DNA of 32,000 nt, from positions 2,670,001 through 2,702,000 of the forward strand of contig NC_009483.1 in NCBI RefSeq assembly GCF_000016745.1, read 5' to 3'. This document shows positions 14,196 to 29,458 of this stretch, piece by piece (within the stretch, counting starts at the first letter, position 1; the number at the start of each line of letters is the position of its first letter). The position numbers and the translations under genes are program-made. The notes beneath the pieces are model-generated. The model did not search any database, had not been told where the DNA came from, and was given only the letters and a program-made list of their open reading frames with translations. Source of the stretch: Geotalea uraniireducens Rf4. GTDB lineage: Bacteria > Desulfobacterota > Desulfuromonadia > Geobacterales > Geobacteraceae.

Positions 14196-14897
14196 TTACT
14201 TCACAAACGAAGATTTAAGCAGGATATGCTTATTATCGAGAATTTCAATCTCCCGCTCCTTCACGAAGCGATTCAAAAGTCTCGTTACCGTTTCGCGGGA
14301 GACATTTGCGTATCCTGCGATATCTTTATGCAGCAGTTTCAGCGCTATTATGATACCCCGCTCATCCATTACGCCGTTAATTTTACCAAGCTGCTCCAAA
14401 ACTGCCCTGACCCTCTGCTCTGCACTTGCAAAACTCATTACCTTGAGCATCAACCATGATTCTCTCAATCGGGTACACAGCATGGCTACAAGCTGGTGCA
14501 TCACTTTCTCGTCTTTCAACAAATATTTTTCAAAGTTTTCCCGGGCGATCAACTGCACACGAGAATCCTCCATGGCAATAACGGTTGCAGGTGCAGTTTT
14601 TCCATCGAGCAGAGCCATTTCACCAAAAAAATCACCCTTTTTATGGATGGCAAGTATATGCTCCTTCCCATCTTCGCTCGTCTGCACGACTTTTACTTTA
14701 CCGGAAGAAACAATGTACATATACCTTTGAGTGTCCTCCTCCCACAGAATTACATTGTTTTTGTTGAATTTTTTTTCTTCTATAATATTTCTTAAATCAG
14801 TTAATTGTTCCTCTGATAGACATTCGAAGATCGGAATAGTTTTTATGAAATTATATGATTTCAACTGATCAGATTTAGCTATGCCGGATACACTCAT
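14196..14897 (-). CDS. Crp/Fnr-family transcriptional regulator (CRP-type recognition helix, atypical nucleotide pocket)
   Basis: 233 aa. Has a cNMP-binding-like beta-roll (FFGEMALLDGKTAPATVIA) and a C-terminal HTH, GYANVSRETVTRLLNRF, with the R-E-x-x-x-R pattern. Confidence 0.85.
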   Translation of the reverse strand: MSVSGIAKSDQLKSYNFIKTIPIFECLSEEQLTDLRNIIEEKKFNKNNVILWEEDTQRYMYIVSSGKVKVVQTSEDGKEHILAIHKKGDFFGEMALLDGKTAPATVIAMEDSRVQLIARENFEKYLLKDEKVMHQLVAMLCTRLRESWLMLKVMSFASAEQRVRAVLEQLGKINGVMDERGIIIALKLLHKDIAGYANVSRETVTRLLNRFVKEREIEILDNKHILLKSSFVK

Positions 14898-14994: not shown

Positions 14995-15010
14995 AGCAAT
15001 TAAATTGCCA
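14995..15010 (-). promoter_or_regulatory. Candidate sigma-54 (-24/-12) promoter for the Crp-like gene
   Basis: The minus strand reads TGGCAATTTAATTGCT, against the consensus TGGCAC-N5-TTGCW. The GG and GC dinucleotides are correctly spaced. It lies about 98 nt upstream of the ATG at 14897. Confidence 0.5.
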
Positions 15011-15134: not shown

Positions 15135-16535
15135 TCACAACTGGGCTTGCTTTGCTTGCAAGGCTGAAAGCTTGTTAAGATTATATTTTTTCATGAGATC
15201 ATAAAAAGTAGGTCTACTCACACCCAGCGCTTCAGCTGCCTTTGCAATATTTCCTTCCTGGCGCTCCAGGGCATAAATAATCATTTCTCTCTCAACTCTG
15301 TCCCTTGCATCCTTCAATGTCACAACATCTGCTACAGGAATCTGCTGCTGTAGCGGCATGTCTGTGAAACCAAGATCATCGGGTTCCAGCAATAACGAAT
15401 CAGACATGATAACAGCTCGTTGCACCCTGTTTTCCAGCTCCCTGACATTACCCGGCCACCGGTGTGATTCGAGCAGATTGATGGTACCCGTGCTGAAACC
15501 CTTCACTTTTTTGTTGAATTCTTCAGTCGATCTTTTCAAAAAGAGATTCGCCAGGAGCACGATGTCATCGCCACGCTCACGCAATGGAGGAAGGTTGATA
15601 TTGATTACCGCTATCCTGTAATACAGGTCTTCCCTGAAAATTCCCTCCTGAATCGCCTTTGAAATATCAATATTGGTTGCAGAGATTATCCTGGCATCCA
15701 CAGCGATGTCCTCCCGCCCACCGACTCGCTGCAACACTTTTTCCTGAAGAAAACGAAGCAGCTTAACCTGGAGGTTGCCGGGCAATTCACCTATTTCATC
15801 GAGAAACAGGGTTCCCTTGTGCGCATACTCCGCTTTTCCTTGTACACGTGCATGAGCTCCGGTAAAGGCGCCTTTTTCAGCACCGAATAATTCAGATTCA
15901 AGCAAATTTTCCGGTATCGCACCGCAGTTTATGGGAATAAAAGGGCCTTCATTTCTAAGACTCATGGTGTGCAGAGCCCTGGCAACCAGTTCTTTGCCCG
16001 TCCCGCTCTCACCGGTAACAAACACGGCAATATCAGATGATGCAACCTTTCTTATGGTAGAAAACACCTGCAACATCTGGGGACAATGTCCGATTATGCC
16101 GCCAAATCCTGTACCGTTATGCTCCAGTGCGGTTTGCAGCCGATTGTTTTCCTCTTCAATGTCCAGTAAATAAAATGCCCTGTTGATAATGACCTTCAAT
16201 TCATTCATATCGATCGGCTTTTGATAGTAATCATACGCACCGAGTTGCACAGCCCTCAGGGCATTGCTTCGTCCGTCATTACCTGTGATCACAATGACTT
16301 TGGCAGCAGGAACATGCCTGAGTATCTCTTTCAGACACCTAAAACCTTCCTCCATACCATCTTCATCGGGGGGCAAGCCAAGATCCAGTGTGATAACTTT
16401 AGGATTGTGCTTCTTGAACAATGATAGTGCCTCACCACCATCGCAAGCAAACAGAACGTCATATTCTTTTCCAAGCCCCCATTTAAGCTGCTTGCGAATA
16501 TCGCTATCATCATCAACGATCAAGAGCTTTTCCAT
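15135..16535 (-). CDS. prsR: Sigma-54-dependent response regulator, PrsR-like (PEP-CTERM-box type)
   Basis: Has a receiver domain (LLIVDDD...[12 protein letters not shown]...KVIVITGN...GAYDYYQKP), an AAA+ sigma-54 interaction domain ([20 protein letters not shown]) and a C-terminal Fis-type HTH. The start is ATG at 16535 or 16538, after AGGAG. Confidence 0.82.
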
Positions 16536-16556
16536 CATACTCTCCTGTTTTCTCAC

Positions 16557-18602
16557 TTAATCCTTAGGCAACCAGACTGTAAAAGTTGTTCCTATGCCGA
16601 GATCACTACTTACTTCGATTCTGCCGTTATGCGCTTCCACAATCTGTTTGCTCTGATAGAGTCCAATACCCAACCCTTTCTTCTTTGTAGTCTTGAATGG
16701 AGTAAAAAGATATTCATGCAAAAAATCGGGAGCGATACCGCAGCCGTCATCAAGAACCTTTATGAAAGCCAGGTTGCCGGCCCCTACTTCAACAGAGATC
16801 TGCCCCCTGCCGTCGGTTGCCTCCACGGCATTCAAGAGCAAATTCAATGCAACCTTTTGCAACTCTTCGCGATCAACCATTGCGATCACGCTGTTACCTC
16901 TGATACATATTTTCCCACCGTCAACAATTTCAGCGGTCTCCTTTACCAATTGTAACAAATCTGCCGGTTCCCGATTTAACGAATGCTTTTCCGGGATAAT
17001 TTTAAGCCGTGAAATAAGAGCCTTCATTTTTGCTACCGTGTTGCCGAGCGATTCGATCATATCCTGCTGAAATTCCGTTTCGGACATATAATGACTTGCA
17101 TTGTCCAGGATCAATGAAACCGTATAGACCAGGTTTTTCAGGTCATGGATCACGAATGTTGAAACTTTGCCGAGTGCTTCCATTTCCCGCGCCTGAGCCA
17201 ATTGCTCTGAAAGCCGCAAGTTCAACAGGGCAGATGAAGTTTGGCGCGCCAGAGTTTTCATAAGATCATAGTCTTCGTAGTTATAAACCTCATCCCGATT
17301 TACTGGTTTTCCGAGAACTATGAAACCGTCCATCACGCCGTTTAAAAACAGCGGGATAACAAATGATATGTCGTTCAGCCTGAAAAAGTCCTTACAGTGG
17401 TCGGACGGTTCAAAAATCCCCTCGCCCATATTGACGACCCAGCTCTTTTCCGTCATATGCTCGATGATAGTGTCATCACGGCCAAATTCTACTGCTCGCG
17501 TCTCCATCTCAAGACTTGCAGCTGTTCTAAACAATCTCCGTTCACCATCATAAAGAAACAGGGCGCAGCCACCCATGCCGAAGGTATCAGCATAACCGCA
17601 CAGGATAGACTGTAACAACTCATCGCCGCTATGTGACGAAGATAGGCGATCGGTAAACTGAAGCCATTGAATTCTGTAATCATACTTGTTCTTGTAAAAG
17701 TTCTTATGCAGATGGACTTTAATTTTGCGTTTCACCGTTTCCGAAAGTAGAACGCATATCAGCCCCGCACCTGATAAAAATGCGATAACAATTGCCATGG
17801 TGCGTTGAAACGAGTCTCCGAAATATTTCATCCCCTCGCCCATCAAACCAAGTCCAAGCAGGTAAAGGCTGACAACGACGAGAACAACCGATTTGTAGGC
17901 TAACTGCCGGGATACGGTAACTTTTACTCCGTTGCCCCTGATGAACCTGGAGTATGCCATCATAAAAACAGCAATGATAATAACTACCGATCTACCCGGA
18001 ACCAGATTCATATTGATTGTTCGATAGAGAAGTCCCTGGCTGTAATAAAAAATCAGGAAACTCAGCAAAAAACCGGCGCCTACTATTTCGTACTTGATTT
18101 TCCATCTTGAAGAAACAGATGCGTTTATAAATGTAGCTTCAAGATTGATCAGGGCGATCACCATATAAATCAGCAAGGCAAAGAAGAAAATGAAACCGTA
18201 GTTTCCGAGGAACAACATGCGCTCGGAAATAAAGTCGGGGGAATAAAAAAATAAATTGACTGGTATTGTGATGACTGCCAGTGGGAATAGACAGGCGATA
18301 GCAATGGTTAATCGTTGAGAATTCGGGATTGATTGCACTTTATACAGTCTAGAACAGGTGAGACTAAACAGGAGCCAGGTGATAGGTAGGGTACATTCGG
18401 CAAATAGCGATAATTGCTTCCACAACATGACCCTTTTCGTGTCGTTAATCGATAACAGATCGAATATTTCCAGAGCACATACAGATGTGAGCGCAGCAAG
18501 GTTAGCGTACGAGTAAACATCTCTTTCTCTTTTATTGAGAAGATAAAAAGAGTAAATACAGCAAACCGATATTGCACCTATGGAAAGTATAGTTTGAAAC
18601 AT
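16557..18602 (-). CDS. prsK: Multi-TM sensor histidine kinase, PrsK-like
   Basis: 681 aa. About 8-10 N-terminal TM helices, a GAF-like middle region, an H-box (VIHDLKN), and N and G boxes (LLLNAVEA, DDGCGI, GLGIGL). It lies immediately upstream of prsR. Confidence 0.78.
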   Translation of the reverse strand: MFQTILSIGAISVCCIYSFYLLNKRERDVYSYANLAALTSVCALEIFDLLSINDTKRVMLWKQLSLFAECTLPITWLLFSLTCSRLYKVQSIPNSQRLTIAIACLFPLAVITIPVNLFFYSPDFISERMLFLGNYGFIFFFALLIYMVIALINLEATFINASVSSRWKIKYEIVGAGFLLSFLIFYYSQGLLYRTINMNLVPGRSVVIIIAVFMMAYSRFIRGNGVKVTVSRQLAYKSVVLVVVSLYLLGLGLMGEGMKYFGDSFQRTMAIVIAFLSGAGLICVLLSETVKRKIKVHLHKNFYKNKYDYRIQWLQFTDRLSSSHSGDELLQSILCGYADTFGMGGCALFLYDGERRLFRTAASLEMETRAVEFGRDDTIIEHMTEKSWVVNMGEGIFEPSDHCKDFFRLNDISFVIPLFLNGVMDGFIVLGKPVNRDEVYNYEDYDLMKTLARQTSSALLNLRLSEQLAQAREMEALGKVSTFVIHDLKNLVYTVSLILDNASHYMSETEFQQDMIESLGNTVAKMKALISRLKIIPEKHSLNREPADLLQLVKETAEIVDGGKICIRGNSVIAMVDREELQKVALNLLLNAVEATDGRGQISVEVGAGNLAFIKVLDDGCGIAPDFLHEYLFTPFKTTKKKGLGIGLYQSKQIVEAHNGRIEVSSDLGIGTTFTVWLPKD

Positions 18603-18696: not shown

Positions 18697-20038
18697 GGCT
18701 CTGCAACGAATCAAGTGGGTAGAGGGAATAGCGACTTTAGGTTGAGCTTGCCTGCAACCAGATAAGCCATGCAGATCAAGTTGTCAGGATTCCGATAGCC
18801 TCGTGCCCGAGTTTTGGCTGATTGAATTAGGCTGTTGATGCCCTCAATGAAGCCGCTAGTCAGGCCGCTTTCAAAATGTGCCAGAATGCCATCCCAATGC
18901 TCTTTTACAGATTCGGCCATGTTCTTGATGAGTTGGATTGAGCTTGCGGCGGCTTTCCGATGCCATTTGGTCAACAGGGTTTCTGCCTCCGTTCGGCTTG
19001 AAGCAAAATAGACGTTCTGAAGGTTCAGCTTGTGCATGTAAGCTTCCGTACTCCTTAAGCTTTGACTGGTGATAATGGCATCCAGGCGCTGTTCCTCTTC
19101 CGGTGTCAGGTTCTCTGGATTTTTGAGGAACAGGTTTCTGCTCTTTTTCAGGATTTCAGGAAATAACCTGGCTTCTTGAGCCCTTATCTTACTAAGCTTA
19201 TCGTTCATAAGCTTGATGACGTGGAATTTATCGAAGGTGACCACGGCATGGGGCAACTGCTCTTTGACACCCTTTATGAATGCCTTGGACATGTCAATAG
19301 CAGCGTCTGTGATGCTATCAGGATCGCCGCCATGTGACTTAAGGTCCGCGACGAAGCTCTTGACTGTTTCGTTGTCCTTTCCCGTCGTGCCGAACAAGAG
19401 CTTATGCATGTCGAGGTCGAAGAAGAAGGTGACGAATTTCTCGTCATGACTGCGCCCGGCAAAGGTTTCATCCGCACCGACCCTCTTCACCTCGGAGAAG
19501 TCTTCTGCGGCCCTTGCCTTCTCGACATAGGATTGAATCAACCGCCATAGACGGGTATCGGTAACGGCAAACAGCCTGCTCATGACCTTCACCGGCAAAT
19601 CACGAGCCATGGTCATGGCCAGGGCCTCAAACAGCAGCGTAAATCCTGAGCCTGCGCGAGCCCAGGGTACCTGGACCAACTTCACGCCGCAGTCGCTGTT
19701 AGGGCACTTTACCCGTGGAACACGCGCATGAAGGTAGGCTTCGTACTGGAAGAAATTCAGATGCCGCCACTCTTTCTCCGTGGTGTCATGGACTGGTGAC
19801 AACGTTCCGCAGACCGGACAGGGAAAGGTGGCTCCCCGCTGGAAGTCGATGGTTATGTCCAAACGACTTGACTTCTTGTTGAAGTCAACAGAGGTAACCT
19901 TCCACGGGATGGCAATTCCAAGAGCAGCACCAAAAAGATCTTCAGGATTCATAGCGATTACTAACCTCCAGGCTGAGTGATGGTGGCCTATCTTACATCA
20001 ACCCGGCCCAGGCTACCCACTCAATTCGTCGAGGAGCC
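18697..20038 (-). mobile_element. ISL3-family insertion sequence, apparently intact (1342 bp)
   Basis: Imperfect 26-bp terminal IRs: ggctctgcaacgaatcaagtgggtag (18697-18722) against the reverse complement of ctacccactcaattcgtcgaggagcc (20013-20038). An 8-bp direct target duplication caattaaa sits at 18689-18696 and 20039-20046. It holds a single transposase ORF. Confidence 0.85.
18711..19952 (-). CDS. ISL3-family transposase
   Basis: 413 aa. N-terminal zinc-finger-like CPVCG...CP..C, then a DDE_Tnp_ISL3-like body (GADETF..., FHVIKL...). Confidence 0.88.
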   Translation of the reverse strand: MNPEDLFGAALGIAIPWKVTSVDFNKKSSRLDITIDFQRGATFPCPVCGTLSPVHDTTEKEWRHLNFFQYEAYLHARVPRVKCPNSDCGVKLVQVPWARAGSGFTLLFEALAMTMARDLPVKVMSRLFAVTDTRLWRLIQSYVEKARAAEDFSEVKRVGADETFAGRSHDEKFVTFFFDLDMHKLLFGTTGKDNETVKSFVADLKSHGGDPDSITDAAIDMSKAFIKGVKEQLPHAVVTFDKFHVIKLMNDKLSKIRAQEARLFPEILKKSRNLFLKNPENLTPEEEQRLDAIITSQSLRSTEAYMHKLNLQNVYFASSRTEAETLLTKWHRKAAASSIQLIKNMAESVKEHWDGILAHFESGLTSGFIEGINSLIQSAKTRARGYRNPDNLICMAYLVAGKLNLKSLFPLPT

Positions 20039-20398: not shown

Positions 20399-21847
20399 TT
20401 ACCATGTTACCAGCCCGACCGCTCTTTGCAGGATCAAGCGCGCATCATTTATATCGATAACGCCATCCCCCTGCGGCCGGCTGGATGGATCAAGCGGCCA
20501 GACATCGCCCGTTGACATGATCGACGCTGTTTGCAATGACGGATCCAAGGCAGCACGCAGCACCATCAGGGCATCTGCAATAGCAACAGTGCCGTCACCG
20601 TTCGCATCACCCTTGAGAACCACTGGAGGAGTTACGATATTACTTACCGTTACAGTTACGGCTGTTGCCTGACCGACATTGCCTGCCGCATCGTAGGCTT
20701 TGGCAGTCAGGGTGTAGGAGCCGTTGGCCGCCGAAGCGGTATTCCAGCTGAAGCTGTAGGGGGATGCGGTGTCGGTGGCCATCAGTGAACCGTTCACATA
20801 GAACTCGACCTTGGTCACCCCAACGTTGTCGCCGGAGCTGGCGGTGACCGATGCGGTGCCGCTTACCGTTGCACCGTTTGCCGGCGCGCTGATCGATACC
20901 GTCGGTGCGGTGGTGTCGGCGACCGTGTTGTTTACAGTCACCGTCGCCACGGTGGACTGTCCCACGTTGCCTGCTGCATCGTACGCTTTGGCAACCAAAG
21001 TGTAGCTGCCGTTCGCTACCGCCGCCGTATTCCAGTTATAGCTGTATGGCGCCACATTACCTGCGGACAAAAGCACGCCGTTCGCGTAGAACTCGACCCT
21101 GCCCACCCCGACGTTGTCGCCGGCGCTTGCCGTGATCACCACTGTCCCGCTCACTGTCGTATTGTTGCCGGGTGCCGTCAGGGACACCGTGGGAGCGGTT
21201 GTGTCATTGACGACCGTGACGGTCACAGTGCCCGACTCCCCCACATTGCCGGCGGCGTCGTACGCCTTGCCCATCAACGTATAGCTCCCGGCGGCAAGCG
21301 CTGAGGTGTTCCATGAATAAAGATAGGGAGTAGTCGTGTCCGTGGCCTGCAGTGCCCCATTCACATAGAACTCGACCTTTGTCACCCCGACGTTGTCCGT
21401 GGCGCCGGCAGTGACCGAAACGGTGCCGCTTGCCGCGGCATTGTTGAGCGGGGATGTTAAGGAAACCGTCGGGGGGAGTGATTCAGGTATGGCGACAACG
21501 TTCGAATAGGAGCTTTCCTCGCCGGCAGCGTTGTACGCGGTCACAGCAAAGTAGTAGGCATGGCTCGGGTCGAGGCCGTTGATGGTGGTAGATGTCAGGT
21601 TTTGCACATTGATCGGGGAAGCCCCGCTGGTGGCTCCAGTGCCGCTAAAGGGTTGGGTGGATGAATCCGCCTGGTAATATACCTTATAACCGGTAACGCT
21701 CGGGTCCGTTTCAGGATCCCACTGTAGGGTCACATTGGTTGCAAGGCACGTGGCCTGACCGGCAAAGAAAATGACCAATGCGAATATCATGGCACAGAAT
21801 GATTTGGTTGTAATAAGTTGCCCTCTTGATCCGTTTCCAATATTCAT
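20399..21847 (-). CDS. Secreted FN3 + three Ig-like repeats + C-terminal dockerin-like domain protein
   Basis: Signal peptide MNIGNGSRGQLITTKSFCAMIFALVIFFAGQATCLA, then FN3 (VTLQWDP...GYKVYY...YYFAVTAYN). The unit DNVGVTKVEFYVNG...YDAAGNVG occurs three times. The C-terminus GDANGDGTVAIADALMVL...GDGVIDINDARLILQRAVGL is dockerin-like (Ca-binding). The start ATG at 21845-21847 follows GGGAG. Confidence 0.8.
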   Translation of the reverse strand: MNIGNGSRGQLITTKSFCAMIFALVIFFAGQATCLATNVTLQWDPETDPSVTGYKVYYQADSSTQPFSGTGATSGASPINVQNLTSTTINGLDPSHAYYFAVTAYNAAGEESSYSNVVAIPESLPPTVSLTSPLNNAAASGTVSVTAGATDNVGVTKVEFYVNGALQATDTTTPYLYSWNTSALAAGSYTLMGKAYDAAGNVGESGTVTVTVVNDTTAPTVSLTAPGNNTTVSGTVVITASAGDNVGVGRVEFYANGVLLSAGNVAPYSYNWNTAAVANGSYTLVAKAYDAAGNVGQSTVATVTVNNTVADTTAPTVSISAPANGATVSGTASVTASSGDNVGVTKVEFYVNGSLMATDTASPYSFSWNTASAANGSYTLTAKAYDAAGNVGQATAVTVTVSNIVTPPVVLKGDANGDGTVAIADALMVLRAALDPSLQTASIMSTGDVWPLDPSSRPQGDGVIDINDARLILQRAVGLVTW

Positions 21848-21869
21848 CTTTATCTCCCATCTTACTGGC

Positions 21870-21905
21870 AATAAAAAGCCGTGTTGTGATTTCCCCACAA
21901 CCCGG
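21870..21905 (-). terminator. Leader terminator (expression platform of riboswitch copy 1)
   Basis: The minus strand reads GCCGGGTTGTG-GGGAAAT-CACAACACGGC (10 bp, 1 mismatch) followed by TTTTTATT. It ends about 22 nt before the start codon. Confidence 0.65.
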
Positions 21906-21959
21906 CGTGCGCTTCATCATGAATAATAAAGTCTGCCGGGCCATTTATACCTGGTTGGT

Positions 21960-22040
21960 ATTTCGGCGACCCGGCTGTCTCGGTGAGACCCTTTAGGCTT
22001 TCCGTCCCATTCTCGCGAATGGTTTAGTATTTTCGTCTAC
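21960..22040 (-). promoter_or_regulatory. GEMM-I (c-di-GMP-I class) riboswitch aptamer, copy 1
   Basis: The minus strand reads GTAGACGAAAATACTAAACCATTCGCGAGAATGGGACGGAAAGCCTAAAGGGTCTCACCGAGACAGCCGGGTCGCCGAAAT. From memory of the V. cholerae Vc2 aptamer it matches AAACCAUUC-GNRA-GAxUGGGACGxAAAGCC ... AGCxGGGUUxCCGA, including the GNRA loop (GCGA) and a CCUAAAG receptor-like segment. Confidence 0.75.
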
Positions 22041-22060
22041 CGCGTTAATTGTTGAATACC

Positions 22061-22103
22061 GTTATAGCCGAAAGCCGCAGATCGACATGTGACAGAAATC
22101 ACT
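22061..22103 (-). promoter_or_regulatory. Class-II-type promoter: CRP-like box plus -10 (copy 1)
   Basis: The box at 22088-22103 reads TGTGACAGAAATCACT (+) and AGTGATTTCTGTCACA (-). Exactly 21 nt separate it from the minus-strand TATAAC at 22061-22066, which centres the box at about -41.5. Confidence 0.55.
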
Positions 22104-22171
22104 AAAGGAATAGTCTTGATTGCAAAAATCGAAACAGGGGCTCTCAAATCCTTGTTGAACAAATAGCGCAA

Positions 22172-22214
22172 CAGATATCACAGCAGGAATACAAAGAATG
22201 TGATGCAAATCACA
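22172..22214 (-). promoter_or_regulatory. Second, perfect CRP-like palindrome with the same 21-nt spacing to a weak -10
   Basis: TGTGATGCAAATCACA (22199-22214) is a perfect TGTGA-N6-TCACA. The minus-strand TATCTG at 22172-22177 lies 21 nt downstream. Confidence 0.4.
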
Positions 22215-22305
22215 AATGAATGGATTTTGGGGGAAAATTCAAATTCGGCAATTAATACCATTGCACTCAAGCAGAAGGGAAACGGATTACTATGAAAATC
22301 GAGAT

Positions 22306-22329
22306 GGGCACAGGATTTCTCCTGTGCCC
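22306..22329 (-). terminator. Intrinsic terminator after the large FN3/Ig gene
   Basis: The minus strand reads GGGCACAGG-AGAAAT-CCTGTGCCC followed by ATCTCGATTTTC. Confidence 0.55.
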
Positions 22330-22359
22330 GTCTGACCATTAATCCCTAAGCCGCATTTA

Positions 22360-24387
22360 TCACTTCCTAACCGTTATGGACGTTGTGTCCATATTGTTGG
22401 CGGCATCGAAGGCATTCACCGTAATCACATGTGACCCTCTCGCGTAGGAATTCGTATTCCAGGTCCATGCCAAGGTATTGGAGGAGGTCGTTACTTTCAA
22501 CACATTGTCGATGTAGAGCGCCATTTTGGTGACCCCGACGTTATCGGAAGCCGAGGCTTTGATTGTGACGTTCGATCGGACTCTCGAACCCGCTGCGGGT
22601 GAGTTGATAGAAACGGTCGGCGGCGTGGTATCGCTTACAAGGATATTGACCGTGGCGCTGACACTTGACGACACTTTTCCTGTCGCGTCTTTTGCCCAGG
22701 CATAGGCAGTATTCGTTCCAGTGCTGCCGAAGGTAAACGAGGTGTTAGGGGAGCTCAACCAATCGCAGTTAGTCGCCGCGTTGGTGGACGTGACACAATA
22801 TGCCGTTACACCCACGTTATCAGTCGCGGCGAATGCTGTAACAGGAATTGTTAAACTGCTTGAGGTCGCGGGCATGGTAAATATTGTCACAGTGGGTGGC
22901 GTGGTGTCAGCCGCCGTACTGTTTACCGTCACTGTCACATTGCCGGACTGCCCCACATTGCCCGCCGCGTCATACGCCTTGGCCGTCAGGATGTAGGTGC
23001 CGTTTGCCACTGCAGTGGCATTCCAGCTGACGGTGTACGGCGAGGCGGTGTCGGTGGCTTGCAGGACGCCGTTCACGTAGAACTCGACCCTGGTCACACC
23101 CACGTTGTCCGAAGCGGAAGTGGAGACCGTAACCGTGCCGCTCACATTCGTATTGCCGGCCGGCGAGCTGATAGAAACGGTCGGCGGCGTGGTGTCGCTT
23201 ACAAGGATATTGACCGTGGCGCTGACACTTGACGACACTTTTCCTGCCGCGTCTTTTGCCCAGGCATAGGCAGTTTTCGTTCCAGTGCTGCCGAAGGTAA
23301 ACGAGGTGTTAGAGGAGCTCAACCAATCGCAGTTAGTCGCCGCGTTGGTGGACGTGACACAATATGCCGTTACACCCACGTTATCAGTCGCGGCGAATGC
23401 TGTAACAGGAATTGTTAAACTGCTTGAGGTCGCGGGCATGGTAAATGTCGTCACAGTGGGTGGCATGGTGTCAGCCGCAGTATTGTTTAACGTCACCGTT
23501 ACATTGCCGGACTGTCCCACGTTGCCCGCCGCGTCATACACCTTGGCCGTCAGGGTGTAGCCGCCATTCGCAACCGATGCCGTATTCCAGTTATAGCTGT
23601 ACGGCGCCACATTACCTGCGGACAAGAGTACTCCGTTCCCATAGAACTCGACTTTGCTCACCCCTACGTTGTCGCCGGCGCTTGCAGTGATTGCCACTGT
23701 CCCGCTCACCGTAGCGTTGTTACCAGGCGCTGTCAGGGACACCGTGGGAGGAGTCGTGTCATTGACGACCGTTACGGAAACATTGCTCGACTGATCGACA
23801 TTACCCGCAGCGTCATATGCCTTGGCCATTAATGTATAGTTACCGGCTGCCAGCGATGAGGTGTTCCACGAATAAATGTATGGGGTCGATGTATCCGTGC
23901 CATTAAGAACGCCGTTCACATAGAACTCGACCTTGGTCACTCCGACGTTGTCGCCGGCGCTGGCGGTGACCGAAAGCGTTCCACTCGCGGTTGTATTATT
24001 GGCTGGGTAACTTAAGGAAACCGTCGGGAGGACCGATTCGGGGACGGTGACTATATTCGAATAGGAACTTTCCACGCCGGAGGTATCATAAGCGCTTACC
24101 GCAAAGTAGTAAGTACGCCCAGGGTCAAGATTGCTGACGGTCGCGGTCGTCTGGTTGCTAACATCCATTGGCGACCCGGTACCGTTAAAAGGAGTTGTGG
24201 ATGAATCCGCCTGGTAATAAACCTTGTAACCCGCAAGGTTGGCATCAGTGTTCGGATTCCACTGGAGGGCCACATTGGTCGCGAAGCACGTTGCTTGGCC
24301 GGCCAGAAAAAAAGCCGACAGGAATATCGTGACCAGGAATAATTTGGACACGAGATGCCCTTTTCTTGTTGCTTTTCCAATACTCAT
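22360..24387 (-). CDS. Secreted FN3 + multi Ig-like repeat protein (paralog of 20399-21847, no dockerin)
   Basis: Signal peptide MSIGKATRKGHLVSKLFLVTIFLSAFFLAGQATCFA, then FN3, then alternating DNVGV...YDAAGNVG Ig-like units and a second Cys-pair domain (TAFAATDNVGVTAYCVTSTNAATNCDW). The start ATG at 24385-24387 follows GGAGAGAG. Confidence 0.8.
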   Translation of the reverse strand: MSIGKATRKGHLVSKLFLVTIFLSAFFLAGQATCFATNVALQWNPNTDANLAGYKVYYQADSSTTPFNGTGSPMDVSNQTTATVSNLDPGRTYYFAVSAYDTSGVESSYSNIVTVPESVLPTVSLSYPANNTTASGTLSVTASAGDNVGVTKVEFYVNGVLNGTDTSTPYIYSWNTSSLAAGNYTLMAKAYDAAGNVDQSSNVSVTVVNDTTPPTVSLTAPGNNATVSGTVAITASAGDNVGVSKVEFYGNGVLLSAGNVAPYSYNWNTASVANGGYTLTAKVYDAAGNVGQSGNVTVTLNNTAADTMPPTVTTFTMPATSSSLTIPVTAFAATDNVGVTAYCVTSTNAATNCDWLSSSNTSFTFGSTGTKTAYAWAKDAAGKVSSSVSATVNILVSDTTPPTVSISSPAGNTNVSGTVTVSTSASDNVGVTRVEFYVNGVLQATDTASPYTVSWNATAVANGTYILTAKAYDAAGNVGQSGNVTVTVNSTAADTTPPTVTIFTMPATSSSLTIPVTAFAATDNVGVTAYCVTSTNAATNCDWLSSPNTSFTFGSTGTNTAYAWAKDATGKVSSSVSATVNILVSDTTPPTVSINSPAAGSRVRSNVTIKASASDNVGVTKMALYIDNVLKVTTSSNTLAWTWNTNSYARGSHVITVNAFDAANNMDTTSITVRK
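22605..23732. repeat. In-frame tandem duplication, period 564 bp (188 aa), inside the CDS
   Basis: Positions 22605-22990 against 23169-23554 are near-identical, with only scattered single-base differences by eye. The antisense ORFs 22721-22996 and 23285-23560 in the track are offset by exactly 564 nt and are nearly identical. Confidence 0.85.
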
Positions 24388-24409
24388 CTTTCTCTCTCCT
24401 TCTCTTGGC

Positions 24410-24446
24410 AATAAAAAGCCGCGTTGTGATTTTCTCAACAACCCGG
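24410..24446 (-). terminator. Leader terminator (expression platform of riboswitch copy 2)
   Basis: On the minus strand, GCCGGGTTGT...ACAACGCGGC is followed by TTTTTATT. It is homologous to 21870-21905. Confidence 0.6.
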
Positions 24447-24492
24447 CTTGCGATATTTTATGAATAAAAAAAGAAGGCCGGGCCATCTAAGC

Positions 24493-24573
24493 ATTTCGGC
24501 GACCTGGCTGTCTCGGTGAGACCCTTTAGGCTTTCCGTCCCATTCTCGCGAATGGTTTAGTATTATCGTCTAC
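24493..24573 (-). promoter_or_regulatory. GEMM-I riboswitch aptamer, copy 2
   Basis: The minus-strand sequence is nearly identical to copy 1. Differences seen are A to T in the 5' tail and GCCGGG to GCCAGG. Confidence 0.75.
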
Positions 24574-24603
24574 ACTTATTGTGTTGATATATTATTGATT
24601 AAC

Positions 24604-24646
24604 GTTATAGCTGAAGACCGTTACCTTATATGTGACAGAAATCACT
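24604..24646 (-). promoter_or_regulatory. Class-II-type promoter: CRP-like box plus -10 (copy 2)
   Basis: The box TGTGACAGAAATCACT at 24631-24646 is identical to copy 1. Exactly 21 nt separate it from the minus-strand TATAAC at 24604-24609. Confidence 0.55.
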
Positions 24647-24718
24647 AAACAATATTAGAAAATCATGTTCCGCTCTTTCTTAACTTTTTCGAAACCGGCC
24701 CATTTATACCAGGTTGGT

Positions 24719-24797
24719 ATTTCGGTGACCCGACTGCATCAAGGAGACCATCCGTATGCTTTCCCCCCTTCGCAAATGGTCTTGAATTATCAGCGAG
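24719..24797 (-). promoter_or_regulatory. Degenerate/orphan GEMM-I-like leader copy (copy 3)
   Basis: The minus-strand 3' half GCAGTCGGGTCACCGAAATACCAACCTGGTATAAATGGGCCGG closely matches copy 1. The 5' half (AAGACCATTTGCGAAGGGGGGAAAGC) has lost P2 complementarity. It lies upstream of the copy-2 promoter, not inside that transcript. Confidence 0.4.
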
Positions 24798-24871
24798 GTG
24801 ATGGATTTGTGATATATTAGATTAAGCAAATAATGCACCCCTTTCGTATCTATTAACCATGACTATTAATC

Positions 24872-26044
24872 ATGAATGCTACAGCTTTTCCCAAAATGAA
24901 GGTTTTTCATTTCATCTCCGGCGATCTCTGGGCAGGCGCCGAAACAATGGCCTTCAATTTGCTCAGGCGCCTGAAGGGCTATTCGGATCTCGACCTTTCC
25001 GTAATCCTCCTCAACGAAGGGAGACTTGCCGACGAATTAAGGAACAGCGGCCTGACCGTTCACGTTATCGATGAAAGGCGATATTCTTTTTGGGAAATTG
25101 TGCGCAGGATCCGAGCGATTCTTCGTTCTTCCCCTCCTCAACTCATCCACTCTCACCGCTACAAGGAAAACATTTTAGCCATCCTGGCAGCCGGACCCGG
25201 AGGGAGCATAAATCTGATCGCCACCCAGCATGGTCTACCGGAATTCGCCGGGAAAAAGCCCCCCTTCGCCGTTCGTTTCAAGTCCAGGGCAAATTTCCAT
25301 ATTCTTTCCCGATATTTTACGAAAACAGTGGCGGTATCCGGAGACGTCCGAAATTTCCTCGTAAATCACTGCGCATTCCGCAAAGAGAACGTCGAGGTCA
25401 TTCACAACGGCATTGAGATACCCAACGCCATGCCGCCCAAGGGTGGAATCGGTTTGTTCGTGATCGGCTCATCGGGTCGTCTCTTTCAGGTCAAGGATTA
25501 CCCGCTCATGGTCGATATTGCCCGGACAATAGCCGATCTCGATGAGGATAACATACGTTTCGAGCTTGCGGGCGACGGTCCTGAGCGCTCCACCCTCGAA
25601 GCGCTGGTCCAGCGCTACGAGCTGCGAAACCGCTTCGTCCTCAAGGGACACCAAGACGACATGGACACCTTTTATCGGGGATTGGACCTCTACCTGAACA
25701 CCTCGGTTCATGAGGGGATACCCATGACCATTCTCGAAGCCCTTGCCCGTGGTCTTCCAGTCATTGCCCCCGCTGTAGGAGGGATCTGTGAAATCATCGA
25801 GAATGGCGTGGAAGGGTTCCTGATAAACGGCCGCCATCCCCATGATTTTGCAGAAAAGTGCCTGCTCCTTCGGGAGAACAAGGAGCTTCGCGAGAGGATG
25901 TCGAAGTCTGCCAGATATAAGGTAGAACAACTCTTTTCCGCAGAAAGAATGGCCGAGAGTTATTACCGGCTCTATTGCCGTACGTCACGCCCCTCGCGTT
26001 TCGGGTGCCTGAATAATTCCGCCTCCATCAGCCGCGCCAGCTAA
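24872..26044 (+). CDS. Glycosyltransferase family 4 (GT-B, RfaG-like)
   Basis: 390 aa. The C-terminal EGIPMTILEALARGLPVIAPAVGGICEIIENGVEGFL is the E-x7-E GT4 signature. The start is ambiguous (24872 or 24896) and no clear RBS is seen. Confidence 0.8.
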   Translation: MNATAFPKMKVFHFISGDLWAGAETMAFNLLRRLKGYSDLDLSVILLNEGRLADELRNSGLTVHVIDERRYSFWEIVRRIRAILRSSPPQLIHSHRYKENILAILAAGPGGSINLIATQHGLPEFAGKKPPFAVRFKSRANFHILSRYFTKTVAVSGDVRNFLVNHCAFRKENVEVIHNGIEIPNAMPPKGGIGLFVIGSSGRLFQVKDYPLMVDIARTIADLDEDNIRFELAGDGPERSTLEALVQRYELRNRFVLKGHQDDMDTFYRGLDLYLNTSVHEGIPMTILEALARGLPVIAPAVGGICEIIENGVEGFLINGRHPHDFAEKCLLLRENKELRERMSKSARYKVEQLFSAERMAESYYRLYCRTSRPSRFGCLNNSASISRAS

Positions 26045-26066
26045 ACACCATCTTAAGGAGTCACCC

Positions 26067-27197
26067 ATGGAGCTCGTCTTTGCCGCATCGATTTTTTGGG
26101 TCTTCCATGCCTATTTCGGCTATCCATTGACCCTCCGCCTCCTCAGCATCAGATGGCGTAAGACGGTGACCAAAGGCTCTTTCCAACCCCCCGTTTCCCT
26201 GATCATCACCGCTTGCAACGAAGAGCGGAGGATCAGGGACAAGATCGGGAACACTATCGCCCTTGACTACCCCCGGGAAAGACTTCAGGTGATAGTTGCC
26301 TCCGACGGTTCCACTGACGGAACTGACGAGATCGTTCGGAGTTATGCCCACAAAGGCATCGCTCTCCTTGCCTTTCCGGAGCGCCGAGGCAAGGAGAGCG
26401 CGCAGAAAGATGCTGTGTTGCACGCCACCGGCGAAGTCATCGTTTTCTCCGACGTTGCGACCCGCCTGGATCCGCACGGACTCAGGGAAATCATCGCCAA
26501 CTTCACCGATCCATCGGTCGGGTGCGTAAGCAGCGTTGACCGGGTTATCGGCCGCGACAGCACTCCCTGCAGTGAAGGCTTTTACGTCAAATACGAAATG
26601 TGGCTGCGGGATTTGGAGTCGCAGGTCAACTCGCTGGTAGGACTCAGCGGGTCCTTTTTCGCCGCGCGCAAGGAGGTGTGTAGTGATTTCTCGGGGGACA
26701 CGCAAAGTGACTTCAGGACGGTTCTAAACAGCATCAGATTGGGACTGCGGGGGGTAAGCGATCCCGACGCCGTCGGCTATTATCAGGATATCTCCGACGG
26801 CAAGCGTGAGTTCGACCGGAAGGTTCGCACCGTGCTCAGGGGATTGACGGTTTTTTTCCGAAACCTCGAATTTCTCAACGTTTTTCGTTACGGCTTTTTT
26901 TCCTACCAGTATTTCTGCCATAAGCTGCTCCGATGGCTGGTTCCTCTTTTCCTGTTTTCCGCTCTGGCGGCTAATGCAGCTTTGAGCCTGAATTCCGGTG
27001 GGTACTCCGTGCTGCTTCTCCTTCACCTTGCCTTTTACGGCATCGCCATCGGGGGGGGACTGGCAAAATCGCCCCCCACACATGTTGCGCTGAAAATCCC
27101 GATATATTTTGTGACGGTCAACACAGCAATTATTGTGGCGTGGTGGCAATATGTCATGGGGAAGAGGATGGTTATGTGGTCACCGTCAGAGCGATGA
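26067..27197 (+). CDS. Integral-membrane family-2 glycosyltransferase (synthase-like)
   Basis: 376 aa with an AAGGAG RBS. N-terminal TM segment, GT-A core (VSLIITACNEE...ASDGSTDGT...VFSDVAT), an HKLLRW variant of Q/RxxRW, then 3-4 C-terminal TM helices. Confidence 0.8.
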   Translation: MELVFAASIFWVFHAYFGYPLTLRLLSIRWRKTVTKGSFQPPVSLIITACNEERRIRDKIGNTIALDYPRERLQVIVASDGSTDGTDEIVRSYAHKGIALLAFPERRGKESAQKDAVLHATGEVIVFSDVATRLDPHGLREIIANFTDPSVGCVSSVDRVIGRDSTPCSEGFYVKYEMWLRDLESQVNSLVGLSGSFFAARKEVCSDFSGDTQSDFRTVLNSIRLGLRGVSDPDAVGYYQDISDGKREFDRKVRTVLRGLTVFFRNLEFLNVFRYGFFSYQYFCHKLLRWLVPLFLFSALAANAALSLNSGGYSVLLLLHLAFYGIAIGGGLAKSPPTHVALKIPIYFVTVNTAIIVAWWQYVMGKRMVMWSPSER

Positions 27198-27294
27198 AAT
27201 GCTGCGGATATTCATCGAAAATGCCGGAAAACATGTGTCATCACTCTGCGGCCATCGTATTATACGGCCTGCACTCCCACCTGCAAGGTGCTGG

Positions 27295-27329
27295 TTAGTT
27301 TCTCATCCGGGGGTTCCGGATGAAACTAA
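27295..27329 (+). terminator. REP-like hairpin / probable terminator after the GT2 gene
   Basis: TTAGTTTCTCATCCGG-gggt-TCCGGATGA-AACTAA. It belongs to the same hairpin family as 29463-29487. Confidence 0.5.
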
Positions 27330-27342
27330 TTAATAGTTTAAA

Positions 27343-27385
27343 TGTGACTTGAATCACAAAGGGCAACTATGGATTATGCTATACA
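27343..27385 (+). promoter_or_regulatory. Class-II-type promoter: CRP-like box plus -10 (copy 4)
   Basis: The perfect palindrome TGTGACTTGAATCACA at 27343-27358 is separated by exactly 21 nt from TATACA at 27380-27385. Confidence 0.6.
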
Positions 27386-27408
27386 TGACACCAGGTCAAC
27401 ATAATCAG

Positions 27409-27489
27409 GTAGACGATAATACTAAACCATCCGCAAGGATGGGGCGGAAAGCCTAAAGGGTCTCACTGAGACAGCCGGGTTGCCGAAAT
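27409..27489 (+). promoter_or_regulatory. GEMM-I riboswitch aptamer, copy 4
   Basis: Reads GTAGACGATAATACTAAACCATCCGCAAGGATGGGGCGGAAAGCCTAAAGGGTCTCACTGAGACAGCCGGGTTGCCGAAAT. P2 shows compensatory changes relative to copies 1 and 2 (CCATTC/GAATGG becomes CCATCC/GGATGG), with GNRA loop GCAA. Confidence 0.78.
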
Positions 27490-27524
27490 GCCAGATTGGT
27501 TTCGGCCCCGGCTATTTTTGTTTT
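27473..27524 (+). terminator. Terminator overlapping the 3' strand of aptamer copy 4
   Basis: AGCCGGGTTGCCGAAA-tgccagattgg-TTTCGGC-CCCGGCT is followed by ATTTTTGTTTT. Its 5' arm is the aptamer's conserved 3' segment. Confidence 0.65.
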
Positions 27525-27623
27525 GGCGATTCGAATCACATAAAACCATCATCACATCAGCCTCTTCATCTTTTTGAAGCGTTGGACGCAGCACCATGCC
27601 ATCAATGGTGAAAAGGAGTACAT

Positions 27624-28574
27624 ATGAAGAAACGTTTAGGCCCATTTTTTGTGATTTTTTCAGCAGTTTATTTTTTCTGGGTCAACCCGGGTGTTGCCGG
27701 CACAACTCTCTTCCAGGAAAGTTTTGAAGATGGGAATTTCAGCACGAGAGGCTGGTACGATAATACCAGCCCGAAACTGTCCAGTGTGGAACATGTGGCC
27801 AACAGCGCCAAGTCCCTGGAATTTCATTTTGCAAAAGGCGCCGTCACTCCCGATAATGCCGGTGCGTCGATAAGAAAAAAGTTTACCGAAAGCGACTCGG
27901 TGTATGTCAGCTATTACATAAAACACAGCGCAAGCTGGGTGGGATCGGGCGTGGCGTACCATCCGCACCAGTTTTACCTTCTGACCAATCTTGAGGGCGA
28001 CTGGTCGGGACTGATCCCTACGCACATGACGGCCTACATCGAGGAAAATGGCGGGAACTCGGTCGTGGCCATCCAGGACAGCTTGAACGTCAATCTGGCG
28101 AACGTGGGCAAGGATTTGACCGCAGTCACCGAGAACCGGGCGATCGGTGGATGCAACGGAGACAGTGACGGCTACGGCAATGGGGATTGCTATGCCAGCG
28201 GCAGCGGCTATGCCAATGGCAAGCAGTGGAAGTCGGGCACAGCGCTCTTCTCCAACACCGCCGGTGCGTATTACAAAAACGACTGGCACCTGGTCGAAAC
28301 CTACCTCAAGCTGAACAGTATCGTCAATGGCAAAGGCGCCAAGGATGGCATTCTGCAGCAATGGTATGACGGAAAACAGGTTATGAACTACACCAATGTC
28401 GTCTTCCGTACCGCGCAGAATCCGAACATGAAATTCAATCAGCTTCTGATTGGTCCCTATATCGGCGTAGGCTCGCCGGTAGATCAGACCTTCTGGGTGG
28501 ACAACCTGGTGGTGGCGACAACACCCCCCGTCAAAATTTCACCTCCGCAAAACCTGAGGATCATAAGTCGATAG
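27624..28574 (+). CDS. Secreted beta-rich protein, ConA-like/jelly-roll fold guess (possible polysaccharide lyase/hydrolase-like)
   Basis: 316 aa with an AGGAG RBS and signal peptide MKKRLGPFFVIFSAVYFFWVNPGVAG. It is a distant paralog of the next ORF (shared W..E.YLKL...G....W..GK.V ... VD..V..T..P). The functional call is weak. Confidence 0.6.
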   Translation: MKKRLGPFFVIFSAVYFFWVNPGVAGTTLFQESFEDGNFSTRGWYDNTSPKLSSVEHVANSAKSLEFHFAKGAVTPDNAGASIRKKFTESDSVYVSYYIKHSASWVGSGVAYHPHQFYLLTNLEGDWSGLIPTHMTAYIEENGGNSVVAIQDSLNVNLANVGKDLTAVTENRAIGGCNGDSDGYGNGDCYASGSGYANGKQWKSGTALFSNTAGAYYKNDWHLVETYLKLNSIVNGKGAKDGILQQWYDGKQVMNYTNVVFRTAQNPNMKFNQLLIGPYIGVGSPVDQTFWVDNLVVATTPPVKISPPQNLRIISR

Positions 28575-28633
28575 TTTAAAATCATTCCATAGAAAGCCCT
28601 GGAATGTACCAAACGTGCTGTAAAGGAGAATGT

Positions 28634-29458
28634 ATGATAGCTGGAACCAGAAAAATGGTAACTGTACTTGTATCGATAGCATGCCTGAGTGTTGCGGGTC
28701 AGGCATTTGCATGGACGAAGACCGTAAATTTTGATAACGGAACGAATGGGGCTCTTGCAAATGGCGCCGTTGGTTTTGACTACGCCGGCAGCAAGACGAC
28801 CATCTCCGGCGATATGGCTGTCAGTGGCGCCAAGTCGGCTAAAATGGTCTGGGCCAAAGGTGACCCCGGCTGGAACCTTCAGCATGGCGAGATCAACTTC
28901 CCCGCACCGGTAAAAAATGGCGGAGAGGTGTGGATCAGGGGCTACTACTATTTTGCGAATCCCTGGAGCTTTCTTTCCAACAACGGCGATTACAGCGGCA
29001 TAAAAATCATGCGGCTGGCTACGGATGTTGGCGGTTGGCACTCAATTTTCTCGGTGTTCAGTCCGAACATTAGCGCTTCCAACGAAATGGAGCAGGTACA
29101 GATAGATACAAGCGCGCCCTTTATTATCGGCGCCTGGCAAAGCCTGGAGATGTATCTGAAGCTGTCTCCCACCCAGGGGATATTCAGGATCTGGCAGAAC
29201 GGCAAACTGGTCTTTGAGGACCTCAATCACAAAACCATTACCAGCTCAAACGGATACGTTTCAATGGCGTCGGTCATGTCCGTATGGAACAATAACGTCG
29301 GACAGTCGCAGACTCAGTACGTGGACGAGTTCGTCATCACCACCGACCGCCCTGCCCAGGTGGACAGCAAGGGCAATCCGATGATCGGGCCGATTAATGG
29401 CACGAGTCCGGCCACTCTCCCCCCTCCTACCGGCCTGCGAGTAACAGCCACTAAATAG
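28634..29458 (+). CDS. Secreted beta-rich protein, paralog of 27624-28574
   Basis: The start is placed at ATG 28634, after AGGAG at 28624-28628. Signal peptide MIAGTRKMVTVLVSIACLSVAGQAFA. Same C-terminal architecture as the preceding ORF. The ORF track starts at 28604. Confidence 0.6.
   Translation: MIAGTRKMVTVLVSIACLSVAGQAFAWTKTVNFDNGTNGALANGAVGFDYAGSKTTISGDMAVSGAKSAKMVWAKGDPGWNLQHGEINFPAPVKNGGEVWIRGYYYFANPWSFLSNNGDYSGIKIMRLATDVGGWHSIFSVFSPNISASNEMEQVQIDTSAPFIIGAWQSLEMYLKLSPTQGIFRIWQNGKLVFEDLNHKTITSSNGYVSMASVMSVWNNNVGQSQTQYVDEFVITTDRPAQVDSKGNPMIGPINGTSPATLPPPTGLRVTATK

Follow-up and report, generated by a model that had tools for sequence, protein, structure and literature searches.

The pur operon of Bacillus subtilis is controlled by PurR and a guanine riboswitch, and tfoY of Vibrio cholerae by VpsR and Vc2. 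At class II promoters of the Escherichia coli cyclic AMP (cAMP) receptor protein CRP, such as galP1, a TGTGA-N6-TCACA site at -41.5 replaces the -35 element and is followed after 21 nt by the -10 element. Upstream of V. cholerae gbpA, a cAMP-CRP site precedes the Vc1 GEMM-I riboswitch (Kariisa et al. 2015, PMC4545359). We analysed a 32,000-nt stretch of the Geotalea uraniireducens Rf4 genome (NC_009483.1, positions 2,670,001 to 2,702,000; hereafter the window, with coordinates counted from its first letter), in which three transcription units for secreted proteins share a promoter and leader consisting of a Crp-type box, a -10 hexamer, a GEMM-I aptamer and terminator hairpins.

Geobacter riboswitches of the GEMM-Ib type, responding to cGAMP (the 3',3'-linked cyclic GMP-AMP), were reportedly described by Kellenberger and by Nelson in 2015, and to our knowledge cGAMP signalling in Geobacter is so far known through GEMM-Ib riboswitches alone. 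Replacement of G20 by A is the defining trait of this 3',3'-cGAMP-sensing subclass in Geobacter (PMC6140456), and the reverse change, A20G, turns a Geobacter aptamer selective for cyclic di-GMP (c-di-GMP) (PMC6456294). The location of GEMM-Ib riboswitches upstream of Geobacter cytochrome, pilus and polysaccharide genes is established, for example at pgcA/GSU1761, and they function as terminator-based ON switches (PMC6456294).

For the window, we favour a reading in which the three units for secreted surface or matrix proteins are jointly controlled by a promoter of the class II Crp type and by an ON-riboswitch for cGAMP, with a probability of roughly 0.7. The first layer would be a sigma-70-type promoter that has a -10 but no -35 element and carries a TGTGA-N6-TCACA site at about -41.5; a Crp/Fnr-family activator, for which the protein encoded at 14196-14897 (-) is the best candidate, would bind this box and recruit RNA polymerase. 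In the second layer, the nascent leader would fold into an A20 GEMM-Ib aptamer, most likely one that binds 3',3'-cGAMP. As long as no ligand is bound, its 3' strand would pair with downstream sequence and an intrinsic terminator would form; with ligand, this strand would be kept in the aptamer, allowing read-through and turning the switch ON. Given these two layers, expression of the fn3/Ig-domain and lyase-like proteins would need both a Crp-type signal and cGAMP, and we therefore propose an AND gate.

An Rfam scan of the whole window returned only three matches, each of them to RF01051 (c-di-GMP-I / GEMM-I). They span the complete model (1-87 of 87) and exceed its gathering score, which is 35 bits. 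The aptamer of unit 3 (27411-27487, +) scored 49.4 bits, that of unit 1 (21962-22038, -) 44.6 bits and that of unit 2 (24495-24571, -) 43.8 bits, each within 2 nt of the coordinates given in the original prediction, which had been made by reading the letters of the window. The matches by which that prediction could have been refuted are all significant. In the Rfam alignments, all three adopted the two-helix fold, with P1/P1a capped by GCGA or GCAA (GNRA) loops and with one or two non-canonical pairs in P2.

Upstream of each aptamer lies a Crp-type box. That of unit 3, TGTGACTTGAATCACA (27343-27358, +), matches TGTGA-N6-TCACA at 10/10 positions, and the proximal box of unit 1 (22088-22103, -) matches at 9/10 and is centred 41.5 bp upstream of the inferred start. 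The unit 2 box (24631-24646, -; 9/10) is identical to the latter, both reading TGTGACAGAAATCACT on the plus strand and AGTGATTTCTGTCACA on the gene strand. The -10 hexamers are TATAAC for unit 1 (22061-22066, -; inferred start at about 22053-22054), TATAAC for unit 2 (24604-24609, -) and TATACA for unit 3 (27380-27385, +), and read directly from the sequence, the distance from TCACA to the hexamer was exactly 21 nt in all three promoters. A further 20-30 nt separate the hexamer from the aptamer. The layout that had been noticed by eye (box, exactly 21 nt, hexamer, aptamer, terminator hairpins) was thus present in 3/3 units. The sigma-70 consensus had no match at the three window promoters, and unit 1 lacks a -35 element; because the -35 element is absent, the box would serve activation rather than repression.

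The window contained five TGTGA-N6-TCACA sites at no more than one mismatch, compared with 0.85 expected, and none of 100 shuffled sequences gave five. One of them is an extra perfect box, TGTGATGCAAATCACA (22199-22214, strand not assigned), 111 bp upstream of the proximal box of unit 1; it lies downstream of the unit 2 terminator hairpin (22306-22329), and 21 nt further on there is a weak -10 sequence, TATCTG. This box could serve either as an additional auxiliary site upstream of the proximal one or as a second promoter of low strength.

We then compared the window with related aptamers elsewhere. A scan with the pattern AATACTAAACC-N8-18-GGRCGGAAAGCC in one genome per species gave at least 120 loci, nearly all of which, among the matches listed, came from Geobacterales or Desulfuromonadales; all counts derived from the scan describe a sample and not a census (individual loci are cited below by labels such as L096). 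Each aptamer was scored by its best upstream TGTGA-N6-TCACA match within the 35 positions between -95 and -60, for 140 GEMM-Ib aptamers from other Geobacterales genomes (among the matches listed) together with the three window copies. The scores were bimodal: 123 aptamers had 3-7/10, two had 8 and 18 had 9-10. These high scorers comprised the three window aptamers and 15 from other genomes, with boxes at -69 to -83; among the matches listed, 0.14 such boxes would be expected in other genomes (Poisson P ~1e-25). The motif for which the original prediction had proposed a genome-wide search, a box followed by 21 nt and a -10 element at a riboswitch, recurs much more often than expected by chance, in about 15 further Geobacterales genomes.

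In a sequence logo of 24 unique box promoters, conservation was confined to two elements: the box, whose 5' flank is T-rich, and nATAAT, placed exactly 21 nt past TCACA. With the -10 element taken to lie at -12 to -7, the 21-nt spacing would place the dyad at -41.5, which is the class II CRP/FNR geometry. TTGAC was found at the -35 position in 0/15 box promoters (L096 has TTGAC just upstream of the -10 element). Among the matches listed, 64 of the non-box aptamers had TTGAC upstream and 20 were second members of tandem pairs; most GEMM-Ib aptamers listed have ordinary promoters with a TTGAC -35 element. Across 883 kb of loci there were nine perfect boxes, compared with 0.84 expected, of which six stood at the riboswitch-upstream position; a seventh, in L038 (Geobacter sp. 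OR-1), precedes a variant GEMM aptamer.

The box promoters also differed from the others in the genes that follow. Homologues of the fn3/Big_7 genes followed 10/15 box promoters compared with 20/125 non-box aptamers (odds ratio 10.5, P = 7e-5). The remaining targets were lyase-like proteins, a right-handed beta-helix protein, an SCPU pilus subunit, a pseudopilin and a GH18 enzyme, the lyase-like gene of L001 being an orthologue of the first gene of unit 3. Among the loci listed, the products of box-promoter targets are all extracytoplasmic.

Two explanations that do without a regulatory DNA site were weighed against these data. The palindrome might act as a small RNA hairpin in a longer leader transcribed from an upstream promoter: in L047, in L085 and in a relic upstream of unit 2, the box lies between tandem riboswitches, where it could be transcribed. 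However, the GTGA and TCAC half-sites are conserved in sequence and never covary in the 24 promoters, the N6 loop is free to vary, the -10 hexamer is fixed at 21 nt and a 5-bp stem would be weak. Since covariation is lacking and the N6 and 21-nt spacers are unrelated across the 24 promoters, the palindrome is best read as a protein-binding DNA site, and we consider the hairpin explanation hardly credible.

The same unrelated spacers speak against a copied cassette. Shared leaders could be the trace of a recent local duplication without any regulon, and units 1 and 2 give some reason to think so: they are adjacent paralogues with identical boxes, N6 included, and near-identical aptamers, and upstream of unit 2 there is what remains of a decayed copy of an aptamer. 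As their proteins are paralogues, part of the leader similarity between units 1 and 2 is due to duplication. Only unit 3 is an independent gene family relative to them, and it has another N6 spacer, another 21-nt spacer and another expression platform. The argument that the leader stands in front of unrelated proteins accordingly holds for unit 3 against units 1 and 2 and fails between units 1 and 2. With the box geometry present in 15 other genomes, with unrelated spacers and in front of several gene families, duplication as the whole explanation is largely refuted, and we regard it as very unlikely.

The preferred reading, a protein-bound class II site, calls for a regulator, and the candidate is the Crp/Fnr-family protein encoded at 14196-14897 (-), which matches PF00027 (7.6e-26) and PF13545 (3.2e-9). 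It consists of an N-terminal domain with the cyclic nucleotide-binding fold and a Crp-type helix-turn-helix, and matches 4EV0 at 7e-25 and E. coli CAP at E = 2e-11. Its recognition helix reads VSRETVTR, compared with SRETVGR in E. coli CRP, and the DNA-reading residues R-E-x-x-x-R are common to both. At the position of the cAMP-binding Arg82-Ser83 of E. coli CRP, the window protein has Ala-Pro.

We assembled 16 orthologues (L096, L057, L113 and L122-L134). SRETxxR was present in all 15 that have the C-terminal domain (45-60% identity), the sixteenth (L134) ending before it, and Arg-Ser was replaced by (A/S/Q/E/V)-Pro in 15/16. Because the phosphate-binding Arg-Ser is absent, cAMP is probably not the effector, and the protein should therefore not be named a cAMP receptor protein. 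Orthologues lie within 8 kb of riboswitches in L096 and L057 (box scores of 9/10 each) and in L113 (7/10). In 5 of the 13 metagenomic orthologue loci, a box scoring 9-10/10 overlaps or directly follows the crp stop codon (L126:900, L129:5744, L130:10719, L132:1288 and L133:2063); a -10-like hexamer stands 21 nt past the box in four of these, L129 having none. The box is followed by RF03167 and RF01051 aptamers in L126 and by an RF01051 aptamer in L132. The genes next to the crp-stop boxes encode a secreted beta-helix protein, a small membrane protein, a pseudopilin, a secreted protein and an SCPU subunit.

Upstream of the window crp gene itself, an autoregulatory box was sought at up to two mismatches and none was found. 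A sigma-54-like sequence, TGGCAATTTAATTGC, lies at 14996-15010 (-), about 100 nt upstream of the crp start, and would fit control by the neighbouring response regulator PrsR; it is not conserved in the 16 orthologous loci and was rejected as a candidate site.

The palindrome could also be a genuine operator of some other protein, be it another Crp/Fnr paralogue, a repressor or PrsR, with the 14196-14897 protein unrelated to it. In the window, the crp gene does not stand next to the units, bacteria of this order generally have many Crp/Fnr paralogues, and PrsK/PrsR homologues adjoin a box-riboswitch fn3/Big_7 gene in L066. This has to be set against the boxes at the stop codon of this Crp's orthologues in five independent loci and against a CRP-type recognition helix, given that CRP reads TGTGA and that its Arg180 is tied to G at position 3 of this motif (PMC545781). 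PrsR in particular is a sigma-54 activator, whereas the conserved element is a sigma-70 -10 hexamer and GG-N10-GC is missing. Sigma-54 control of the units was likewise rejected, as TGGCAC-N5-TTGC-like matches numbered 38 compared with 32 expected and none fell in the three promoters. We therefore judge a different binder to be unlikely. The case that the Crp subfamily of the 14196-14897 protein reads the box is strong and circumstantial, short of proof. It supports in silico the idea, already contained in the original prediction, of a regulon gated by a Crp-family factor, in that a regulator with a CRP-type helix is encoded in the window and its orthologues are physically joined to boxes.

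Xanthomonas Clp and Burkholderia Bcam1349, for comparison, sense c-di-GMP. The Crp paralogue of the window might itself sense a cyclic dinucleotide (cGAMP or c-di-GMP) or another non-cAMP signal, forming a feed-forward loop of protein plus RNA, which we regard as a long shot. If it did sense a dinucleotide, dinucleotide signalling would gate both initiation and elongation of matrix genes, and the protein would be the first transcription-factor arm of the Geobacter cGAMP pathway.

Regarding the ligand of the riboswitches, all three window aptamers have A at RF01051 model position 11, where the consensus is G. This residue is unpaired and lies directly 5' of P1, and the position corresponds to G20 of Vc2 (A14 in Gs1761). 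BLAST matches of 77-117 nt showed the window aptamers to be 87-96% identical to Geobacterales A20-type aptamers among the loci listed. Given the A at model position 11 and the occurrence of the pattern in Geobacterales and Desulfuromonadales, we assign the window aptamers by sequence to the GEMM-Ib type, with 3',3'-cGAMP rather than c-di-GMP as the most likely ligand. In this respect the original prediction of a cyclic-dinucleotide riboswitch of the GEMM-I family is supported.

The same architecture could nevertheless sense c-di-GMP, or c-di-GMP and cGAMP alike. It was the c-di-GMP-I model of Rfam that gave the matches, bispecificity is reported for some natural A20 aptamers and a protonated A20 can bind c-di-GMP (PMC6140456), and A20 and G20 aptamers occur in tandem before the same gene family in L050 and L096. 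Against this, all three window aptamers are of the A20 type and closely resemble their Geobacterales relatives, and the characterised Geobacter members are strongly cGAMP-selective, about 1200-fold in the case of pgcA (PMC6456294). We consider c-di-GMP sensing improbable on balance, and retain cGAMP as the likely ligand in what follows.

Minimum-energy folds of the leaders indicated how the aptamers may be read out. In all three units, the 5' arm of a terminator hairpin (T1) is the aptamer 3' strand, and a T-rich tract follows. T1 of unit 1 (21921-21975, -) has a weak T-tract, AGACTTTATTATTC, and that of unit 2 (24462-24508, -), which overlaps the aptamer 3' strand, has a good one, CTTCTTTTTTTATTC. 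The intrinsic terminator of unit 3 (27474-27524, +) has the 5' arm GCCGGGTTGCCGAAA and is followed by a good T-tract, TATTTTTGTTTT; in the free minimum-energy fold of this leader, the aptamer 3' strand GCCGGGUUGCCGAAA pairs with UUUCGGCCCCGGC, and UAUUUUUGUUUU comes next. Forcing the aptamer fold abolished the T1-type hairpin, so that terminator and aptamer were mutually exclusive in the folding. By these predicted structures, unit 3 has the standard terminator-based ON design reported for Geobacter GEMM-Ib (PMC6456294).

In units 1 and 2, another terminator-like hairpin (T2) comes after the riboswitch terminator, immediately ahead of the ribosome-binding site, and has a good T-tract. In unit 1 it is formed by GCCGGGTTGTG...CACAACACGGC with TTTTTATT (21870-21906, -), and in unit 2 it again carries TTTTTATT (24410-24447, -). 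The most closely homologous leaders, L047 and L057, have T2 in this position too, with stems that differ in sequence. The T1 3' arm, GGCCCGGC, can pair with the T2 5' arm, and this pairing is the minimum-energy structure in transcripts that end before the T2 3' arm. Because the T2 5' arm, GCCGGGTTG, resembles an aptamer 3' strand, T2 may have remained as the terminator of a second riboswitch that was lost.

Upstream of the unit 2 box, 24695-24791 (-) is a decayed copy of a whole aptamer plus T1, which can be aligned over its full length with the aptamer of unit 1. The idea that it is a functional fourth aptamer was rejected, since P1a is destroyed and no Rfam match was obtained even at E <= 10. 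The relic probably stems from a tandem of riboswitch, terminator, box promoter and riboswitch, an order that is still intact in L047 and L085. Mixed tandem riboswitches precede fn3/Big_7-type genes at L050:5295-5533, L096:831-1168, L068:3342-3600, L126:1011-1373 and L038:1330-1740. In these tandems, a GEMM-Ib aptamer of the A20 type stands ahead of a G20 GEMM-I aptamer with a high score (79-86 bits), or one of the two types lies beside an RF03167 (c-di-GMP-I-GGC) variant; in L038 the order is two GEMM-Ib aptamers, the box and a variant aptamer. Such mixed tandems suggest combined sensing of two dinucleotides.

Several observations weigh against a class II Crp-type promoter combined with a cGAMP ON-riboswitch. 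T2 of units 1 and 2 persists in the minimum-energy fold when the aptamer is forced, and a simple thermodynamic anti-terminator for T2 was rejected: in the full leader of unit 1 this pairing is isoenergetic with T2, and in that of unit 2 it is less favourable by 8 kcal/mol. The predicted structures thus do not fully explain the read-out of the unit 1 and 2 leaders. The placement at -41.5 rests on the -10 element as inferred from sequence. A distance of about 6-13 kb separates the candidate crp gene from the units, and other Crp/Fnr paralogues with the same helix may be present in the genome. Finally, the crp-adjacent boxes of L129, L130, L133 and L122 have no riboswitch; with these four loci, and with most GEMM-Ib aptamers using ordinary promoters, the two layers are not obligatorily coupled.

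The genes of the three units encode secreted proteins. Unit 1 (20399-21847, -) encodes a protein of 482 aa with a signal peptide, an fn3 domain, three Big_7 Ig domains and a dockerin-like C-terminus; the latter (20399-20620, -) contains a double Ca-binding repeat, GDANGDG...DGVIDINDA. The adjacent gene, unit 2 (22360-24387, -), encodes its paralogue of 675 aa with a signal peptide, an fn3 domain and four Big_7 domains. This protein contains a nearly exact internal duplication of about 188 aa, which shows in the DNA as features at 22692 and 23256 that are identical and 564 bp from each other. The operon of unit 3 consists of two genes, at 27624-28574 and 28604-29458 (+), whose products are both secreted and weakly match the polysaccharide-lyase fold PF14099. 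Between a GT2 gene and the unit 3 box, there is a strong hairpin, AGTTTCTCATCCGG...CCGGATGAAACT (27297-27327, +), without a T-tract, which may be a terminator or insulator of the upstream glycosyltransferase operon.

The units are surrounded by an exopolysaccharide locus with four glycosyltransferase genes. Between the crp gene and unit 1 lie the genes for PrsR (15135-16556, -), the sigma-54 response regulator, and PrsK (16557-18602, -), the histidine kinase, of the XrtA/PEP-CTERM exopolysaccharide system; both exceed the NCBIfam cut-offs (PrsK, TIGR02916, 598 bits with a cut-off of 300; PrsR, TIGR02915, 673 bits with a cut-off of 503). The pair is given here only as context for the boxes. A PEP-CTERM tail was looked for at the C-termini of units 1, 2 and 3b, which have no PEP motif, transmembrane segment or basic tail. 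An ISL3-family transposase gene (18711-19952, -) is inserted between prsK and unit 1, and this insertion may have separated the regulators from the riboswitch units. Among the loci listed, the best nucleotide match of the window was 74% over 441 nt to L057, a 'Pelobacter' metagenome-assembled genome.

The original prediction had also held that the pairing was undescribed for matrix or adhesin genes. That claim was too strong, because a CRP site combined with a GEMM-I riboswitch has been published for V. cholerae gbpA (PMC4545359), and the concept itself is not new. In the searchable literature, outside of which the two 2015 PNAS discovery papers fall, no Crp-type element was described at Geobacter GEMM-Ib riboswitches. 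Within that literature, three features appear to be undescribed: a conserved and strictly positioned Crp-type box in a subset of the Geobacterales cGAMP/c-di-GMP riboswitch regulon, a dedicated Crp subfamily without the cAMP Arg, and the threefold occurrence of the module within a single locus. A Crp-type class II promoter before a defined subset would be a concrete second input to the GEMM-Ib regulon, and could bear on which part of the riboswitch regulon fires under which condition. The subset consists of fn3/Ig-domain, lyase-like, beta-helix, pilin-like and SCPU proteins, all of the cell surface or matrix. The prediction, AND logic of a Crp signal and cGAMP, comes with a named candidate regulator, and the module would constitute a compact two-input genetic part.

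Compared with known systems, the window would share with the pur operon and tfoY the division of labour in which a protein controls initiation and a leader aptamer controls elongation or translation, but differs in the signals, the transcription-factor families and the biological outputs. With E. coli promoters of the galP1 type it has in common the 16-bp core, a predicted centre at -41.5 that overlaps the -35 region and 21 nt from TCACA to the -10 element; unlike there, the activator would be a divergent Crp-family protein with an altered nucleotide pocket, and the start and activation are inferred. The resemblance to Geobacter GEMM-Ib riboswitches extends to A20, the predicted terminator-based ON platform, frequent tandems, the taxon and the association with surface, pilus and polysaccharide genes, whereas the window targets are fn3/Big_7 and lyase-like genes and not cytochromes. 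As at V. cholerae gbpA, where two nucleotide second messengers act on one gene, a CRP-type site and a leader GEMM-I riboswitch precede the gene for a secreted protein, an adhesin or colonisation factor in the case of gbpA. There, however, a single gene is served by global cAMP-CRP and a G20 (c-di-GMP) aptamer, whereas here the arrangement occurs in three units of one locus and in at least 15 other Geobacterales loci, with aptamers of the A20 (cGAMP-type) or a variant kind, a strictly kept geometry, predicted at -41.5, that lacks a -35 element and, as candidate, a dedicated Crp paralogue that lacks the cAMP-phosphate Arg.

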